From Candidatus Gastranaerophilales bacterium (GTDB lineage Bacteria; Cyanobacteriota; Vampirovibrionia; Gastranaerophilales; Gastranaerophilaceae), in assembly GCA_016280955.1 (NCBI GenBank), contig JAEEHV010000038.1, forward strand, positions 2,020 to 66,019: a stretch of 64,000 bases of DNA, read 5' to 3'. Numbering within the stretch: position 1 is the stretch's first letter; each line of letters starts with the position of its first letter. This document shows positions 4,365 through 13,243 of the stretch, one piece after another. Under the pieces are notes generated by a model, which saw only the letters and a list, made by a program, of their open reading frames with translations, did not search any database and had not been told where the DNA came from. The translations under genes were made by a program, and so were the position numbers.

Positions 4365-5612
4365 TTAAATCTTGCCGGCTTGTTCAACGTATGCGTTGAT
4401 ATCTTCATCAGAATTCATTTCGGTTGCACAAACTAAAATTTGTTTATTATTAAGTTTGATTCCGCCCAATATTCCTGTTTCTTTAAGTCTGCTTAAAAAC
4501 ATATCGGAATCTTTAACTTCAATTACAAATTCATTAAAAAAGTTTTTATTCAGAGTCTTAATACCTTTTTCTTGAAGCATTTGAGAAAGTTTATGAGCAT
4601 TATTTGCAGAAATAATTCCGGTTTCTCTGAATCCCTTTTCTCCGAGCAAGCTCAGATATAAAGTTGCAGAAAGGGCAATAAGAGATTGATTTGAACAAAT
4701 ATTACTTGTAGCTTTTTCTCTCTTTATATGCTGCTCTCTTGTCTGAATAGTAAGAGTAAATGCCTGTTTGCCGTCTGCATCTAAAGTTCTTCCGACCAGT
4801 CTTCCCGGAAGTTGACGCATATAAACTTCTTTGCATGCCATATAACCGGCATGGGGACCGCCAAAATTCATCGGAATTCCCAGCGGTTGTATATCTCCGA
4901 CAACTATATCCGCTTCTGCAGGCGGATTGATTACGGAAAGTGCAGACAGATTTGCACAAACAATAAAAGTTGTATCAGGTTTCTTAAGCTGATAAATTTC
5001 TCCGTAATAGTCAGGATATTGAACTAATACACAGCAAGCATCAGATACGTTGTCCGGGAGTTCATCAAACCACTTTAATTCAATATCTTTAGCCCATGCA
5101 TATGTTTTAATAACTTCTTTGTATTCCGGATTAAGCTTGTTTGATATAAGAGCTTTATTTAACTTGCCTCTGTTAATTCTGTGAGCCATTAAAACGGCTT
5201 CTGCACATGCGGAACCGCCATCATACATAGATGCATTTGCAATATCCATGCCGGTAATACGTGATATCATTGTCTGATATTCATATATGACTTGTAAAGT
5301 TCCCTGAGATATTTCAGGCTGATACGGGGTGTATGCCGTTAAGAATTCAAAACGTTGTGCCGTATAGTTAACAGCAGCCGGTATAAATTTATTATAAACT
5401 CCGCCCCCGAGAAAAGATATATAATCTGTTTTATTTTTCTTTGAGAGTGCTTTTATTCTTTTTTGCGTTTCAAGCTCACTCAGCGGATTATCCATCTTAA
5501 ATTCTTTAAACAATACGGGAATGTGTTTGAATAAATCATCAATTGAAGATTTATTCACCGAGTTCAGCATCTCTTGTCTTATATCATCAGTATGTGCGAT
5601 AAAATTTTTCAT
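4365..5612 (-). CDS. gcvPA: glycine dehydrogenase (decarboxylating) subunit 1
   Basis: FLTAYTPYQPEISQG, ANASMYDG, FGGPHAG, LQTREQHI.REKATSNIC-type motifs; 415 aa, the size of the split P1 subunit. Confidence 0.93.
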   Translation of the reverse strand: MKNFIAHTDDIRQEMLNSVNKSSIDDLFKHIPVLFKEFKMDNPLSELETQKRIKALSKKNKTDYISFLGGGVYNKFIPAAVNYTAQRFEFLTAYTPYQPEISQGTLQVIYEYQTMISRITGMDIANASMYDGGSACAEAVLMAHRINRGKLNKALISNKLNPEYKEVIKTYAWAKDIELKWFDELPDNVSDACCVLVQYPDYYGEIYQLKKPDTTFIVCANLSALSVINPPAEADIVVGDIQPLGIPMNFGGPHAGYMACKEVYMRQLPGRLVGRTLDADGKQAFTLTIQTREQHIKREKATSNICSNQSLIALSATLYLSLLGEKGFRETGIISANNAHKLSQMLQEKGIKTLNKNFFNEFVIEVKDSDMFLSRLKETGILGGIKLNNKQILVCATEMNSDEDINAYVEQAGKI

Positions 5613-5986
5613 TATTCCACTTCTTCTTTATAGTCAGAGTAATCAAGCAAATCTGCCATTTCAACCTGATCGGCATCAGATTCGATTTTTATAAACCATT
5701 TATTTTCATAACTTTCATCGTTAAGCAGTTCAGGGCTGTTTACAATTTCCTCGTTAATTTCAATAACTTTTCCGGAAATTGGCATATAAACTTCAGAAGC
5801 AGCTTTAACTGATTCGATTGTTGCAAACACTTCACCTTTTGTAAATTCGCTGTCTGTGTCGGGAAGTTCAACAAAAACAATGTCGCCCAATTGTTCAATA
5901 GCATAATCGGTTATACCGACTTCATATATGCCATCTTTTTCTAAAATGTATTCATGAGTTTTGGTACATAGCATGTTTTCGTCCAT
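5612..5986 (-). CDS. gcvH: glycine cleavage system H protein
   Basis: VGITDYA.EQLGDIVFVELP and lipoyl motif IESVKAASEVY. Confidence 0.95.
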   Translation of the reverse strand: MDENMLCTKTHEYILEKDGIYEVGITDYAIEQLGDIVFVELPDTDSEFTKGEVFATIESVKAASEVYMPISGKVIEINEEIVNSPELLNDESYENKWFIKIESDADQVEMADLLDYSDYKEEVE

Positions 5987-6022
5987 TAATTTTTCTCCTA
6001 TTTATAATATGTGTTCTTATTT

Positions 6023-7132
6023 TCAACCTTTATTTCTCTTTTCGACAAACGGCTTTTTGATAATCTCGGCATCGTGCAATTTATCACGTATCATAATTTG
6101 AATTGTAGAGCCAACATGTAAATTGTCAACATGCTGAGCCGAAGCACCTATATATGCAAGTCCGATATTATCTCCTCTTGTGGGAGATACTCCGCCGGAT
6201 GTTACCGTTCCGATTTTTTCGCCATTGGAATATACGTCATATTCGTGTCTTGCAATTGATTTATCAAGCATTTTGAATCCGATAAGTTTTTTTCTTCCGC
6301 CATTTTGGAGCTGCTCCATTATAACTTTTTTACCGTTGTAATCTTCTGCCTTGTTCTTTGATACAGACCATGACAATCCTGCCTCAACAGGTGTAGTATT
6401 TTCATCTAAATCATTTCCGTACAGATGAAGGGCAGCTTCAAGTCTCAATGTATCACGAGCTCCTAGACCTATCGGTTTAATTCCGTATTCTTTTCCTGCA
6501 TCAAGAAGTTTATCCCAGAGATATTCGGCAAATTCGTTGCTTACCATTATCTCTACTCCGTCTTCACCTGTATATCCGGTTCTTGATATCCAAAGATTAA
6601 TATTAAACAATTCATCACGTTTAATAGAGAAGAACGGAGGCAGGTCTATAATTCCAACAGATCTTATTAAATCACATGCTTTTGGTCCCTGAAGTGCCAA
6701 AAGTGAATATTTGTGAGAAATATTTTCAATATCGGCATTAAAACCGAGTTTATTTCTCATCATCCAGTTCAGATCCTCATCAACTCTTGATGCATTTGCT
6801 ATTATAAGATATTTTTTATCTTCCAGTTTATATATAATCAAGTCATCAATCAATCCGCCTTCTTTATTCGGAAGCTGACAATATACAGCTTTTTTGTCAG
6901 TCAGTTTTGATAATTCCTGCGGAACAAGTTTATTTAAAAACGGGAGAGCATCTTCACCATGTACAATCAATTCTCCCATATGAGAAACATCAAATAAACC
7001 GACATTTTCACGAACGGTTTTATGTTCTTCTATTATTGAGGTATATTGAACCGGCATATCCCATCCGGCAAAATCTACCATTTTAGCCCCAAGTGCAATG
7101 TGTTTGTCATGTAAAAATGTTTGTTTGGTCAT
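6023..7132 (-). CDS. gcvT: glycine cleavage system aminomethyltransferase T
   Basis: FAGWDMPVQY, GLFDVSHMGE, SRTGYTGEDG, GLGARDTLRLEA. Confidence 0.96.
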   Translation of the reverse strand: MTKQTFLHDKHIALGAKMVDFAGWDMPVQYTSIIEEHKTVRENVGLFDVSHMGELIVHGEDALPFLNKLVPQELSKLTDKKAVYCQLPNKEGGLIDDLIIYKLEDKKYLIIANASRVDEDLNWMMRNKLGFNADIENISHKYSLLALQGPKACDLIRSVGIIDLPPFFSIKRDELFNINLWISRTGYTGEDGVEIMVSNEFAEYLWDKLLDAGKEYGIKPIGLGARDTLRLEAALHLYGNDLDENTTPVEAGLSWSVSKNKAEDYNGKKVIMEQLQNGGRKKLIGFKMLDKSIARHEYDVYSNGEKIGTVTSGGVSPTRGDNIGLAYIGASAQHVDNLHVGSTIQIMIRDKLHDAEIIKKPFVEKRNKG

Positions 7133-7207: not shown

Positions 7208-7275
7208 AAATACAAATATATGAATTGTTATTTTATTCTTTTTACGGACTTATATTATGTGTTATAATTATTGCC

Positions 7276-8514
7276 ATGGGAAAAAAGATATTAATTGTTG
7301 GAAATGGCGCAAGAGAATATGCTCTTGCAAAGAAGTTTTCAGAGGAGCATGAAATATTTGTTGCTCCCGGCAACGATACAATGAAGGAATTTGCGACAAT
7401 AGTCGATATAAGACCTGATAAGGTTAACGAACTGCTTGATTTTGCACTTGAAAACAATATTGATATGACTGTTCCTTTGGCACAGGAGGCTATACAAAAT
7501 GATATTGCTGCAAGGTTTACGGAAAATAAACAATGTATTTTTGCTCCGACAGCCAATGCAAATGTTATCTCTGCAAATAAAGTACTTTCAAAAAAAATTC
7601 TTTATAAACTCAGAATCCCGACACCTAAATTCGGTATTTTTGAAAAAGCCAATCTGGCGCTTGATTATATAAAAAATCAAAAGATTCCTTTTGTATGCAA
7701 GACAAATGACAGTAACAGTGCTGTTATTTTTACTTCTGCTTCAACGGCAAAAAACTACGTAGAAACAGTATTTACCGAAAAAAATAAAAAAATTATTATT
7801 GAAGATTATGTATATGGCACACCATTTTCATATTACGCAATTACTGACGGGTACAAAGCTTTGCCTCTCGGAAGTTCGCTGACATACAAACATTCACTTG
7901 ACGGTAACGGCGGTCAGTTAACAAGCGGTACCGGAGCATGTTCCCCTAATTATAAGTTGTCCTATGATAATGAATATTTTCTAATGGACAATGTTATATA
8001 TCCGACACTGGAATATCTGGAACGTGACGGTAATCCGTATATGGGAATAATTGGCGTAAACGGTATTCTGACAGATGACGGCGAAATAGTGGTTTTAGGA
8101 TGGCAGACATTTATGCAGGATTGTGATTGTGCCGCTGTTCTAAATTCTCTGGATGAAGATTTGTACTCTCTGTTTTACTCTTGTATAATCGGTTCATTCA
8201 GTGATGAGGTAGAGAATATAAGATGTAATAATCTCTATTCTGTTTCGGTTGTATTAAGCTGTGCTAACAGACAAAATTCGGATAATGCAATTGAGGGATT
8301 GGACAATATTGATGAAGGTACAATAATTACGTTCTATCCGTCCGTAACTAAAAACAAATATCTTGAATACAACGTTCAGAACGGAATGTCGCTTATGGTT
8401 ACATCATCTTCATCAAGTGTGGCAAAAGCTGCACAAAAAACTTATTCTGAACTGAAAGAACTCAGTTTTAGAGGTATGCAGTATCGAAAAGATATATGCT
8501 TAATGCATGCGTAA
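7276..8514 (+). CDS. PurD-like ATP-grasp protein with degenerate active-site motifs
   Basis: Keeps LIVGNGAREYALA, VAPGN and TGACSP; the canonical DGLAAGKGV and EFNxRFGDPE motifs are replaced. Start moved to the ATG of MGKKILIVG. Confidence 0.75.
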   Translation: MGKKILIVGNGAREYALAKKFSEEHEIFVAPGNDTMKEFATIVDIRPDKVNELLDFALENNIDMTVPLAQEAIQNDIAARFTENKQCIFAPTANANVISANKVLSKKILYKLRIPTPKFGIFEKANLALDYIKNQKIPFVCKTNDSNSAVIFTSASTAKNYVETVFTEKNKKIIIEDYVYGTPFSYYAITDGYKALPLGSSLTYKHSLDGNGGQLTSGTGACSPNYKLSYDNEYFLMDNVIYPTLEYLERDGNPYMGIIGVNGILTDDGEIVVLGWQTFMQDCDCAAVLNSLDEDLYSLFYSCIIGSFSDEVENIRCNNLYSVSVVLSCANRQNSDNAIEGLDNIDEGTIITFYPSVTKNKYLEYNVQNGMSLMVTSSSSSVAKAAQKTYSELKELSFRGMQYRKDICLMHA

Positions 8515-8539
8515 AATATATTTTTGTATAATAAATAGC

Positions 8540-8557
8540 GTTACAAAACTTTACATT
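8540..8557 (+). promoter_or_regulatory. HLR1 direct repeat, perfect match
   Basis: GTTACAAA-AC-TTTACATT fits (G/T)TTACAWW-N2-(G/T)TTACAWW. Confidence 0.6.
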
Positions 8558-8566
8558 GGCAAAAAA

Positions 8567-8593
8567 TAAAGCAATTTTTTTTTACACCGATAC
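8567..8593 (+). promoter_or_regulatory. sigma28 (FliA/SigD)-like promoter of the RHH gene
   Basis: TAAA-N15-ACCGATAC against consensus TAAA-N15-GCCGATAA. Confidence 0.5.
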
Positions 8594-8642
8594 TTTATAT
8601 ATATATCACAGGGAAATAATTGAGAATATAAAGGAGCAAAAT

Positions 8643-8831
8643 ATGGCAAGAGTATTAATTTCAATGCCTGAAAGTTTTTTAGGTAAAATTGATGAAGTTG
8701 CAGAAAACGAGAGTCGTTCAAGATCTGAACTCATTAGAGAAGCTTTAAGAAGTTACATTACAAGGTCACAAGTCAGACAGAATACAATGGCAGATAAAAA
8801 TGCCAGAATTTTAGAGGCGCTACTGGATTAG
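8643..8831 (+). CDS. ribbon-helix-helix (CopG/Arc/MetJ family) regulator
   Basis: MARVLISMP..FLGKIDEVA....RSRSELIREAL; AAGGAG RBS before ATG 8643. Confidence 0.85.
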   Translation: MARVLISMPESFLGKIDEVAENESRSRSELIREALRSYITRSQVRQNTMADKNARILEALLD

Positions 8832-8987: not shown

Positions 8988-9015
8988 AAGGGTTCTGCGC
9001 AGAACCCTTTTTTTT
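8988..9015 (+). terminator. intrinsic terminator
   Basis: aagggttct-gcgc-agaaccctt followed by a T-run. Confidence 0.85.
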
Positions 9016-10247: not shown

Positions 10248-12926
10248 ATGTCAGAAAAAAAGACTTTGATATTAATTGATGGTCATGCTTTAGCTTTCAG
10301 GCAATTTTTCGCTCTTGAACGTACGGGAATGAAAAATTCGGAGAATTTGCCTACCTGGGCTGTTTACGGATTTTTTAAAGCTATTTTTGACTTACTTGCA
10401 AAAATTCAGCCTGATTTTATAGCAGTTGCTTTTGATGTCGGCAGACAAACCTTCAGGGTTGAAAAATATGAAGAATATAAGGCTCAAAGAGAAGCAATGC
10501 CTGACAGTTTGAGAACACAGATAGGATTAATCTGTGAAGGACTGAATGCTTTTGACATTCCTATTTATACAAAAGAAGGTTTTGAGGCTGATGATGTTAT
10601 CGGCACAATATCAAGAATTGCATCGGAAAACGGGCATAATACACTCATACTGACAGGAGATCAGGATAGTTTTCAGCTTATAGACAGAGATGGAACAGTA
10701 AAAGTATTAATTCCGCACAAAGGGGAACTGATTGAGTATGACTGGAATAAAGTTTACGAAAAATTAGGTGTTTATCCGAATCAGATTACTGATTATAAAG
10801 GGCTTAGGGGAGATACTTCAGATAACATCCCGGGTGTTAAAGGAATTGGAGAAAAAACGGCACAAAAATTATTGAACCGTTATCCTAATTTGGAAGCTGT
10901 TTTAGAAGATTGTCAAAATATTCCGGAAAATGCCGTTAGACAAAAAATATGTGAAGGAAAAGAGATTGCCGTTTTGTCAAAGGATTTGGCAACAATAGTT
11001 CGGGATGTAGAAATTGATTTTGATATAAAAACCGCAAAGGTTACACTACCCAGTTTAGATAAAGTTTCTGAATTTCTCCGTCAAATGCAGTTTTATACTT
11101 TTATAAAAAATATTGATAAAATCTTAGGCTCATTTAACGGTGAAAAAGTCGAGCCCGAAAATTTAAGCATATTTGCTTCTCAGCCGAAAAATAATTCTTT
11201 TGAACCTGTGCAGCAGGGATTATTCAGTCAGGCTATAAAGGAAAATATAGATGATTCCGACTTTGAATATGAAATAGTATCGGATAAATCCGTAATAAAT
11301 AATTTAAAGAATGAAAAACAACTGGCTGTAAGATATTATGTGAAAGACGGTAAAATCGATGCGATATCCGTTTCAAACGGTAAAAAGTCATATTATTTCA
11401 GCGAAGAATATATAAATGATCTGAAAGATATTATTGAATCACCTGATATTAAAAAATTCGGCTATGATATGAAATCGGATTATCATGTTCTTTTAAATAA
11501 CGGTTTAAAACCGGAAGGTTTTGATTATGATGTTCTTTTGGCAAGTTACGTCAAAGATCCGAACAGAAAACACACACTGGATGCACAGGCTTTGGACTTT
11601 TTAAATCATATTATGTGCCAACCGTTTGAACAGGAAAAATATGCCTGTGACGAAGTTTACACAATATACAAGCTGTATGAATACTGGCAAACTAATCTGG
11701 ATGAAGAAGAACAAAAACTTGTTAAAAATATTGAGATGCCGCTAACACTTGTACTTGGGAAGATGGAGCATACAGGGGTAGCAATAGATGTTGATTATTT
11801 GAAGGAACTTTCCGATTACATGACGGAAAAACTTGCAGAGCTTGAGGATTTGATTTTCCAGCTTGCAGGCGAAAGTTTTAACATAAATTCTCCAAAGCAG
11901 GTTGCAGAAGTTCTTTTCGATAAACTGGAATTAAAAACAAAGAAGAAAAAATCCCGTTCTACAAGTGCGGAAGTTTTGGAGGAGCTGGCTCAGGAATATG
12001 AAATTTGCCAGTACATTTTAGAACACAGGAAATTTTCAAAATTAAAATCAACATATACGGATGTTCTTCCGACATTAATCAGCAAACGAGATAATAGAAT
12101 ACATACAACATATAATCAGGCACTGACTGTGACGGGCAGATTATCTTCTTCAAACCCTAACTTACAAAATATACCGATAAGAACCGAAGAAGGGAACAAA
12201 ATACGTTCGGCATTTTGTGCAGAAGATAAAGAAAACTGGCTGATTTTGAGTGCTGATTATTCTCAGATTGAACTCCGCTTATTGGCGCATGTTTCCGGTG
12301 ATGAACATCTGATACACGCATTTACGACAGGTGAAGATATACATACAATGACTGCTGCAAAAGTTTTTGGTGTCGGATTGGATGAAGTTACAAAGGAAAT
12401 GCGCAGAAGAGCGAAGGCTGTTAATTTTGGTATTGTTTACGGTCAGTCAAAATATGGTTTGGCAAAAAGTATAGGAATTACAAATGATGAGGCTCAGGAA
12501 TTTATAGATAAATATTTTGCGACTTATCCCGGAGTCCGTGACTATATGATTAATGAAATAGAGTATGTAAACACTCATGGATACGTAGAAACCATATTTG
12601 GCAGAAAACGATATTTGTCGACCGAGCTTTCAAGTCCGAATTATCAAATAAGAGAGTTTGCACAACGAGCCGCAATAAATCAGCCATTACAGGGAACTGC
12701 TGCCGATTTGATGAAAATGGCTATGATAGAAACGGATAAACTGCTTTCTGAAGGTAATTTTAAAACCAAAATGATTATGCAGGTTCATGACGAACTTATA
12801 TTTGAAGTTCCGAAAGAAGAGCTGGAAGATATAAAATCCCTTGTGCTAAAGGCAATGGAACTAGGACAACCTCTGAAGGTTCCGCTTGATGTTGATATAA
12901 ATTACGGGATATCCTGGAAAGAATAA
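10248..12926 (+). CDS. polA: DNA polymerase I
   Basis: 5'-3' exonuclease (LIDGH, EADDVIG, GDTSDNIPGVKGIG) plus family A polymerase motifs (DYSQIELR, RRAKAVNFG, QVHDEL). Confidence 0.98.
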   Translation: MSEKKTLILIDGHALAFRQFFALERTGMKNSENLPTWAVYGFFKAIFDLLAKIQPDFIAVAFDVGRQTFRVEKYEEYKAQREAMPDSLRTQIGLICEGLNAFDIPIYTKEGFEADDVIGTISRIASENGHNTLILTGDQDSFQLIDRDGTVKVLIPHKGELIEYDWNKVYEKLGVYPNQITDYKGLRGDTSDNIPGVKGIGEKTAQKLLNRYPNLEAVLEDCQNIPENAVRQKICEGKEIAVLSKDLATIVRDVEIDFDIKTAKVTLPSLDKVSEFLRQMQFYTFIKNIDKILGSFNGEKVEPENLSIFASQPKNNSFEPVQQGLFSQAIKENIDDSDFEYEIVSDKSVINNLKNEKQLAVRYYVKDGKIDAISVSNGKKSYYFSEEYINDLKDIIESPDIKKFGYDMKSDYHVLLNNGLKPEGFDYDVLLASYVKDPNRKHTLDAQALDFLNHIMCQPFEQEKYACDEVYTIYKLYEYWQTNLDEEEQKLVKNIEMPLTLVLGKMEHTGVAIDVDYLKELSDYMTEKLAELEDLIFQLAGESFNINSPKQVAEVLFDKLELKTKKKKSRSTSAEVLEELAQEYEICQYILEHRKFSKLKSTYTDVLPTLISKRDNRIHTTYNQALTVTGRLSSSNPNLQNIPIRTEEGNKIRSAFCAEDKENWLILSADYSQIELRLLAHVSGDEHLIHAFTTGEDIHTMTAAKVFGVGLDEVTKEMRRRAKAVNFGIVYGQSKYGLAKSIGITNDEAQEFIDKYFATYPGVRDYMINEIEYVNTHGYVETIFGRKRYLSTELSSPNYQIREFAQRAAINQPLQGTAADLMKMAMIETDKLLSEGNFKTKMIMQVHDELIFEVPKEELEDIKSLVLKAMELGQPLKVPLDVDINYGISWKE

Positions 12927-12953
12927 AAACTTTATACGAGTGTGATTTTGTTT

Positions 12954-13060
12954 CCTGCCGTAAAAGCAGGTGGGTGAGTGCCTGATTACCTCCGTTTCCC
13001 GCTGGCGATTTTTTATCGGCGGGTATACTTCATAATAACCGAGAGCTTACTCTCCCTTTT
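12954..13060 (-). ncRNA. candidate structured non-coding RNA, family unknown
   Basis: GC-rich island in AT-rich intergenic DNA with nested stems gggagagt/actcaccc, attat/gtaat, cccgc/gcggg, cgat/atcg and a cctgc/gcagg hairpin; strand inferred. Confidence 0.45.
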
Positions 13061-13243
13061 AAAAATAATGTAGGAACAAAATAAACACCCGTATAAAGTA
13101 TTAATATTATTGCATATTTTTTTGTGATTGACAACTGCTCTTTCGGCTAAAACTTATTAAGATAAAAACCCCTAAAAAGTGATTACAGGCTGAATATAAT
13201 TAAATTTTTATCATATAAAAGTATGATTTGTATGATTATCAGT

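Follow-up and report, generated by a model that had tools for sequence, protein, structure and literature searches.

A predicted PurD pseudoenzyme in a Gastranaerophilales genome without the purine pathway

The PurD-like protein described here is encoded in a window of 64,000 nucleotides of DNA from a bacterium of the order Gastranaerophilales, non-photosynthetic cyanobacteria (Melainabacteria) of gut and rumen. The window is part of contig C53, and the genome comprises 2.78 Mb at 97.5% completeness. PurD is the glycinamide ribonucleotide (GAR) synthetase of de novo purine synthesis. Judged from its residues, their conservation and the genome around it, the PurD-like protein can with high confidence be considered not to be a GAR synthetase and to be maintained for another role, which with moderate confidence would be one of non-catalytic binding. 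The gene probably encodes a pseudoenzyme, a protein without catalysis that descends from the GAR synthetase native to its lineage. A first-pass annotation made from the DNA letters had already read it as a pseudoenzyme, and the lost catalytic residues, a ratio of non-synonymous to synonymous substitution rates (dN/dS) of 0.04-0.15 and the missing pathway lend support to that proposal.

7276..8514, plus strand: predicted PurD-like pseudoenzyme gene, 412 aa (Pfam, NCBIfam, HMMER, AlphaFold, Foldseek and residue table)

The open reading frame (ORF) is full length and intact, as first annotated, with its ATG at 7276 and a stop codon that ends at 8514. The start is this ATG and not an upstream TTG at 7225, and all homologues open with the same M-x-KKILI. 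The protein contains all three PurD domains, GARS_N (residues 4-96, 68 bits), GARS_A, the ATP-grasp domain (residues 100-282, 87 bits), and GARS_C (residues 334-407), the last of which is marginal with 34.2 bits against a Pfam cut-off of 34.8; weak matches to RimK and ATP-grasp_3 are also present. Canonical PurDs of the same class reach 185-266 bits on GARS_A. The NCBIfam purD equivalog TIGR00877 scores 217.7 bits, below its curated cut-off of 288, which places the protein outside the equivalog. Its closest solved relatives are all PurDs (HMMER, E = 1e-33 to 5e-43). The AlphaFold model, built with 42 family sequences as input, has a mean local confidence (pLDDT) of 92.6 and a predicted TM-score (pTM) of 0.90, and Foldseek superposes it on 13 solved PurDs with TM-scores of 0.83-0.93 at 23-27% identity, with biotin carboxylase, PurT and PurK ranking far below. 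The protein thus shares the fold and the N-A(B)-C domain order of canonical PurD (EC 6.3.4.13; E. coli 1GSO, A. aeolicus 2YW2, human GARS 2QK4). It also belongs to the ATP-grasp superfamily at the level of the fold, as the adenine-hinge Glu and two phosphate-binding Lys are present (K102, K142, E176, K205).

The likeness to canonical PurD does not extend to the residues that carry out the chemistry. In a HMMER alignment to solved PurDs and in MAFFT, whose tables agree, CKTND-SNSAV stands where canonical PurD has KADGLAAGKGV, LTYKHSLDGNGGQLTSGTG stands where it has QDHKR..DGD.GPNTGGMG, and GWQTFMQDCD stands where it has EFNxRFGDPE; the three motif replacements in the first-pass annotation were therefore exact. 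In A. aeolicus PurD, K103, K143, E185, E192 and K214 contact ATP while D212, R287 and E292 bind glycine (PMC8880213). In human GARS, roles have been assigned to R13, E14, N229, R292, D295 and R385, and the B-loop GLAAGK contacts the gamma-phosphate of ATP (PMC2978367). Placed on these roles via the alignment, the residues of the window protein compare as follows.

K103, K143, E185, K214 (ATP contacts): kept as K102, K142, E176, K205
R13 (PRA, that is phosphoribosylamine, or phosphate site): kept
YRKDI (C-terminal motif): kept
E192 of A. aeolicus (ATP contact, ribose): P183
D212 (glycine binding): T203
Loop Asn, N229 in human (GPNTGGMG loop): L215
E283, N285 (Mg ligands): G275, Q277
R287 (glycine and acyl-phosphate): F279
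E292 (glycine binding): D284
GGRVL Arg (C-domain contact): M371
B-loop GLAAGK (gamma-phosphate): reduced to SNSA, lacking GKG and any Lys

Several structural glycines of canonical PurD are kept as well. The signature R-[LF]-G-D-P-E (Prosite PS00184, as cited in PMC3261824) and the E-x-N Mg ligands that precede it are both absent from the window protein, which reads G-W-Q-T-F-M-Q-D-C-D, and it has neither the GLAAGK B-loop nor the glycine-binding Asp212 and Arg287. The table bears out the annotated view that the residues of canonical PurD for Mg, glycine, the gamma-phosphate and PRA would be gone.

The window protein is a member of an eroded clade, 46 members of which were compared with 101 canonical PurDs. 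The canonical proteins hold the catalytic positions at 93-100% (R287 100%, N285 99%, E283 96%, D212 97%), the B-loop GKG at 94-98%, and the Gly and Pro of the signature at 99% and 100%. None of the eroded members retains R287 (0%); the B-loop Lys survives in 2% of them, the loop Asn in 4% and D212 in 8-9%, and the Mg Glu and Mg Asn persist in 37% and 26% with inconsistent replacements. The E-x-N motif erodes stepwise, being G.N or G.D in family f4, D.N in f2, E.N or E.K in some genera of the window's own family (f1), and G.Q here. The clade has lost 27 canonical near-invariant positions and shares 26, and since only 7 positions are newly conserved across it, its residue changes have the appearance of lost chemistry and not of a rebuilt active site.

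The same comparison bears on the idea of neofunctionalisation, by which the protein would remain a catalyst but have new substrates or chemistry, for example with D282 and D284 as metal ligands and GGQLT as a substrate loop. Strong purifying selection and the ATP-contact residues kept in the window protein would suit such an enzyme, as would the invariance of Y204, K205, G213, Q214, L215, G218, G220, P224, N225, K227, D282 and D284 among 19 members sharing 60-75% identity. It is nevertheless an unlikely explanation, as every clade member is without the E.N.R Arg and the B-loop GKG, the newly conserved positions are so few clade-wide, and the Mg ligands vary between genera (E.N, E.K, D.N, G.N, G.D, G.Q) with no consistent substitute, which is unexpected if Mg-ATP chemistry were under selection.

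A GARS_A match occurs in all 121 sampled genomes of the order Gastranaerophilales, and purM in 32 of the 121, or in 6 of the 86 from f1. Families with larger genomes carry two copies, namely a canonical PurD (185-235 bits), which sits in purL-purF-purM-purN-purD operons with every motif intact, and an eroded copy (110-160 bits). The six f1 genomes with purM have an intact PurD beside it, and in the two of these that were checked (G081 and G076) the operon PurD is short but motif-intact and the eroded copy is also present. The other 80 f1 genomes, which are without purM, have kept only the eroded copy, with just a marginal match (E = 8e-5) in G088. As a separate observation, the PurD open frames in the pur operons of five family genomes appear unusually short (371-391 aa), and two short operon PurDs that were examined (368 and 378 aa; L169:3924-5030, minus strand, and L170:4772-5908, plus strand) have deletions in the N- and B-domains with all catalytic motifs intact.

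A phylogeny of 71 sequences (IQ-TREE, mixture model, SH-aLRT support) recovers the eroded PurD-like clade as monophyletic with 99% support. The fully intact PurD of G017, a genome of family f10, groups with it as sister (joint support 100%) and shares 51% identity with the clade's least eroded member; the operon-type PurDs form a separate clade (100%). Branching within the eroded clade tracks the family codes, which argues for vertical descent, and the PurD-like protein thus appears to derive from the native PurD of its own lineage. The simplest history that we infer is that the native copy became redundant once there was another purD in an operon; the native gene would have been kept for a second role, shed its chemistry, and been retained even past the loss of the pathway. 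In the protein database the subfamily of the window protein exceeds 120 clusters (60-98% identity), nearly all of them 409-436 aa long, and a species-level genome scan finds 80 subfamily loci at 47-69% identity. No fused forms were found among longer proteins. Separately, the 468 aa P0104, found on one metagenomic contig, carries an ATP-cone (PF03477, 57 bits) in place of the first ~12 GARS_N residues, an unconfirmed single observation that may reflect either a genuine fusion or faulty assembly.

The gene is not decaying, because dN/dS is 0.04-0.15 and nearly all sampled family genomes have an undisrupted ORF. The ratios were obtained by the Nei-Gojobori method in a species-rich sister genus, the nearest relative of the window gene with DNA available being 58% identical. 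The closest sister-genus pairs give 0.044 (at a dS of 0.37), 0.052, 0.080 and 0.088, and the median over 163 pairs with dS < 2 is 0.146; the dN/dS check suggested in the first-pass annotation thus shows no relaxed selection in the sister genus. The listed family genomes have frames without internal stops (about 370-490 aa) under the GARS_A match, down to about 30-40% identity. A homologue of an enzyme that has lost its catalytic residues and is under purifying selection is a pseudoenzyme, and the residue losses, the dN/dS and the order-wide presence make the PurD-like protein a probable one. A remnant of a lost pathway whose deletion is merely pending would account for the progressive erosion of catalytic motifs along the tree and for a PurH-like gene that erodes likewise. 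This is very improbable given the low dN/dS, the stop-free frames, the confidently folded model, the conserved promoter, and the fact that, ahead of pathway loss, the eroded form was already present beside an intact PurD.

The genome contains no other PurD homologue, as the window gene is its sole GARS_A match. The suggested search for a canonical purD elsewhere in the genome therefore came back empty. Neither purM, purC nor purE was found in the 97.5% complete genome, the only match for purF was a GlmS-like amidotransferase, and tblastn with the proteins of relatives did not find purL, purQ or purS. The same genome search did not find hisF, and HGPRTase is present with a score above its cut-off. 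The organism is therefore a purine salvager, without a source of PRA-derived intermediates or of 5-aminoimidazole-4-carboxamide ribonucleotide (AICAR). A PurD operating in the de novo pathway is preceded by purF and followed by purN or purT, purL and purM, and the window gene has no such setting. With the pathway missing here and purM missing in 80 of the 86 family genomes, the PurD-like gene is unnecessary for purine synthesis.

These absences also bear on whether the protein might be a divergent yet active GAR synthetase, the only one in the genome, which the first-pass annotation had named as an outcome that would overturn its reading. The full-length PurD fold, the kept R13 and YRKDI, and the lack of any other GARS homologue speak for it. 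The protein is indeed the sole homologue, but purF, purL, purM, purC and purE were not found to supply its substrate or take its product, residues near-invariant in the 101 canonical PurDs (R287, N285, E283, D212 and the B-loop GKG) are all replaced, and purine-making relatives use a separate intact PurD. An active GAR synthetase is accordingly scarcely to be expected.

The preferred reading is that the PurD-like protein works by binding and not by turnover, such that an ATP-grasp cleft holding a nucleotide, or another small ligand, would control or scaffold a partner. The subfamily of the window protein has 97 invariant columns, which take in the ATP contacts and a remodelled loop, GGQLT.G.G.C.PNYK, and include K102, K106, K142, E176, Y204, K205, D282, D284, R404 and D406. 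The invariance of K102, K142, E176 and K205 together with that of the loop makes a cleft occupied by a nucleotide or other ligand the likeliest mode of action. The nucleotide contacts retained in the subfamily point to an adenine nucleotide, with another ligand or a pure protein-protein role also possible. Candidate partners are an adjacent ribbon-helix-helix (RHH) protein of 62 aa, found in the window's subfamily only, and an equally eroded PurH-like relic; in deeper families, GlmU or Prs, which are encoded after the PurD-like gene, could take this part.

Several observations weigh against this reading. The loss of activity is predicted from residues, and the invariant D282 and D284 could in principle build a new metal site. 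Nucleotide binding cannot be universal to the clade, because the ATP-contact Lys are only 70-87% K/R across it, with S, Q, F or N in some subclades. A conserved partner was sought clade-wide by synteny and not found, as neighbourhoods differ between genera, and the operon that PurD-like forms with glmU and prs may merely be the ancestral purD site. The RHH family is multi-copy, with ~3 copies per genome in 119 of 121 order genomes at 65-87% identity, and in this genome its two further copies follow unrelated genes, those of a thiamine pyrophosphate (TPP) enzyme and of the gamma subunit of an oxoacid:ferredoxin oxidoreductase.

The PurD-like gene and the RHH gene are accompanied by the following features, which begin with a predicted promoter and end with a hairpin that closes the unit.

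7241..7268, plus strand: predicted extended -10 promoter-like site, TTTACG-16-TATAAT with TG (pattern scan and conservation)
8515..8642, plus strand: spacer of 128 nt in which a block is conserved, AAAGGCAATTTTTT ... ATACTTTATATATAT, with AAGGAG ahead of the RHH start (alignment of 74 spacers)
8643..8831, plus strand: RHH (CopG-type) DNA-binding protein, 62 aa (Pfam RHH_1, E = 7.5e-9)
8988..9009, bidirectional: terminator-like hairpin with a 9-bp stem and T runs on both sides, closing the PurD-like/RHH unit (pattern scan)

The -10 element of the PurD-like gene ends 7 nt before the ATG and there is no Shine-Dalgarno sequence, for which reason the mRNA is probably leaderless, and the gene appears to have an extended -10 promoter of its own; among 76 relatives, 60 have a TGnTATAAT that ends 6-7 nt 5' of the start codon. 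The aligned spacers (n = 74) are typically about 100-120 nt long, and that at 8515-8642 may hold a weak terminator and a promoter of the RHH gene's own. The RHH start is the ATG at 8643 and probably not the mechanically called TTG at 8556 (91 aa), the homologues being 62-67 aa long and beginning MARVLISMPES. In this genome each of the three RHH copies lies just downstream of a metabolic gene.

The first-pass annotation had placed the PurD-like protein facing gcvT and upstream of the RHH gene and had taken this to hint at glycine or one-carbon regulation, with the protein as the ligand-sensing partner of the adjacent RHH repressor. The linkage to the RHH gene is real within the subfamily, in which RHH lies directly 3' of the PurD-like gene in 69-74 of 80 loci while other flanks vary (the commonest upstream neighbour is found in ~20 of the 80, the commonest second downstream neighbour in ~18), and the RHH protein is highly conserved, with a median identity of 79% versus 62% for the PurD-like protein. 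It is not matched outside the subfamily, as RHH is not adjacent to the PurD-like gene in other genera and the PurD-like family is far older than the linkage; the paralogues noted above follow other enzymes, and the 128-nt spacer may carry a separate promoter. A type II toxin-antitoxin pair was considered and rejected, since the PurD-like gene is vertically inherited and the RHH linkage is limited to one subfamily; PADLOC gave no match and the RHH protein matches antitoxin families only weakly, below their cut-offs.

The glycine side of the proposal concerns three contiguous genes that are divergent upstream of the PurD-like gene.

4365..5612, minus strand: gcvPA
5612..5986, minus strand: gcvH
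6023..7132, minus strand: gcvT

The divergent gcvT is present as annotated but is peculiar to this genome, as none of 80 subfamily loci and none of 18 loci from other genera has gcvT next to the PurD-like gene. Rfam gave no glycine riboswitch, including before gcvT, and the glycine-binding residues of the protein are lost. The glycine/one-carbon link was therefore rejected, and a role as ligand-sensing partner of an RHH repressor in glycine metabolism is decidedly improbable. In the same region (4365-7132) gcvPA is not followed by a gcvPB, the next gene being a PHP-domain phosphoesterase on the other strand.

PurH, the ancestral neighbour of PurD, appears to have met the same fate. PurH homologues are found in 119 of 121 order genomes, and in f1 the protein shrinks from about 505 aa to about 300-330 aa with loss of the inosine monophosphate (IMP) cyclohydrolase domain. 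Its catalytic motif KHxNPCG erodes stepwise through RHTKPCG, KAAMPCG, KSAQICS and KNGNLFA, and reads TTTPTGIC in this genome, where a Pfam-checked PurH query matches only a relic on another contig.

L168:3238-4125 on contig C70 of this genome (G000), minus strand: PurH-like protein, 295 aa, with a partial AICARFT domain (96 bits; Pfam-checked PurH query)

The PurH-like protein would be without a substrate, because there is neither a purine pathway nor hisF, and it is likely to be a second pseudoenzyme. Its gene lies 30 nt downstream of that of a class A penicillin-binding protein (PBP), and PBP1A is upstream only in the two closest genera examined. In the deeper families purH is divergent from a run of PurD-like, glmU and prs genes that point in one direction, a block confined to families other than the window's; here glmU and prs are on other contigs. 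It is tempting to speculate that native PurD and PurH, ancestrally back to back, now form a joint non-catalytic and possibly essential ligand-sensing or scaffolding module of the Gastranaerophilaceae that is independent of purine synthesis, for example passing nucleotide or phosphoribosyl pyrophosphate (PRPP) status on to gene regulation or envelope synthesis, and that the dead PurD of family f13 evolved in parallel; as a whole this proposal is rather doubtful.

Family f13 of the same class (L030-L037) has a separately rooted clade of eroded PurD (100%) that is even more eroded, with for example LQYRTxxADSDAQ, and in five of eight loci it is divergent from a 1200-1325 aa membrane protein with spermidine-synthase-like, tetratricopeptide repeat (TPR) and major facilitator superfamily (MFS)-like parts. 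Some f13 genomes carry the eroded PurD without any canonical PurD.

The nearest precedents for the PurD-like protein are the 'extra' PurD-like proteins of haloarchaea, rrnAC0307 and Hlac_1553, which have no Mg-binding sites and no conserved GDPE Asp, and which their authors did not regard as genuine GAR synthetases (Brown et al. 2011, PMC3261824). The likeness, compared by description only, is to a second PurD homologue without Mg sites. The haloarchaeal proteins are archaeal, sporadic and without GARS_N, whereas the window protein is full length, keeps the GDPE Asp, is order-wide in bacteria and outlasts the pathway. In the literature on PurD pseudoenzymes and paralogues only that haloarchaeal remark was found, and no paper on this family; nor was a paper on purine metabolism of Gastranaerophilales found.

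The synapsin C domain has an ATP-grasp fold without ligase activity and still binds ATP, as is proposed for the PurD-like protein. TTLL12 is another non-catalytic ATP-grasp protein (PMC3520985). Both offer a functional analogy only, being eukaryotic, from other ATP-grasp branches and related at the superfamily level only. The prozyme of trypanosome S-adenosylmethionine decarboxylase (AdoMetDC) is a dead paralogue that activates its active paralogue (PMC5201418), and like it the eroded PurD is a dead metabolic-enzyme paralogue kept under selection beside an active enzyme. Unlike the prozyme, the dead PurD has outlasted both its active counterpart and the whole pathway, and for this reason its partner cannot be PurD.

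The case is a clean natural example of an enzyme displaced by a second copy, apparently stripped of its chemistry, and kept after its whole pathway vanished, which would imply a second function for a core purine enzyme fold. The parallel erosion of the PurH-like protein and the second dead-PurD clade in f13 suggest that the route is repeatable. A ligand or partner, once found, would add a bacterial case to the short list of non-catalytic ATP-grasp proteins. Databases label these proteins 'phosphoribosylamine--glycine ligase (family protein)', so that a purine-pathway step will be assigned to them in error when the metabolism of gut Melainabacteria is reconstructed.

The neighbours of the PurD-like gene, which vary between genera, are dnaJ-like/radical SAM/def/fmt, mutS, iPGM, ylxR-infB, FBA, RuvC and MFS genes. 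A protein of 76-112 aa without a Pfam match is encoded divergently upstream of the PurD-like gene in six of nine other family genera (L003:8733-8963, plus strand, with equivalents in L004, L005, L008, L009 and L011), and its C-terminus, GGYFAGYYNGK.NIVGQRLFIEV, is near-invariant. Elsewhere in the window, between polA and a flagellin-like gene, positions 12923-13104 (minus strand) give a full-length match to the Rfam 6S RNA (RF00013; model 1-187, E = 5e-6) with 42.5 bits against a gathering threshold of 46.4, and this structured RNA is probably a 6S RNA.

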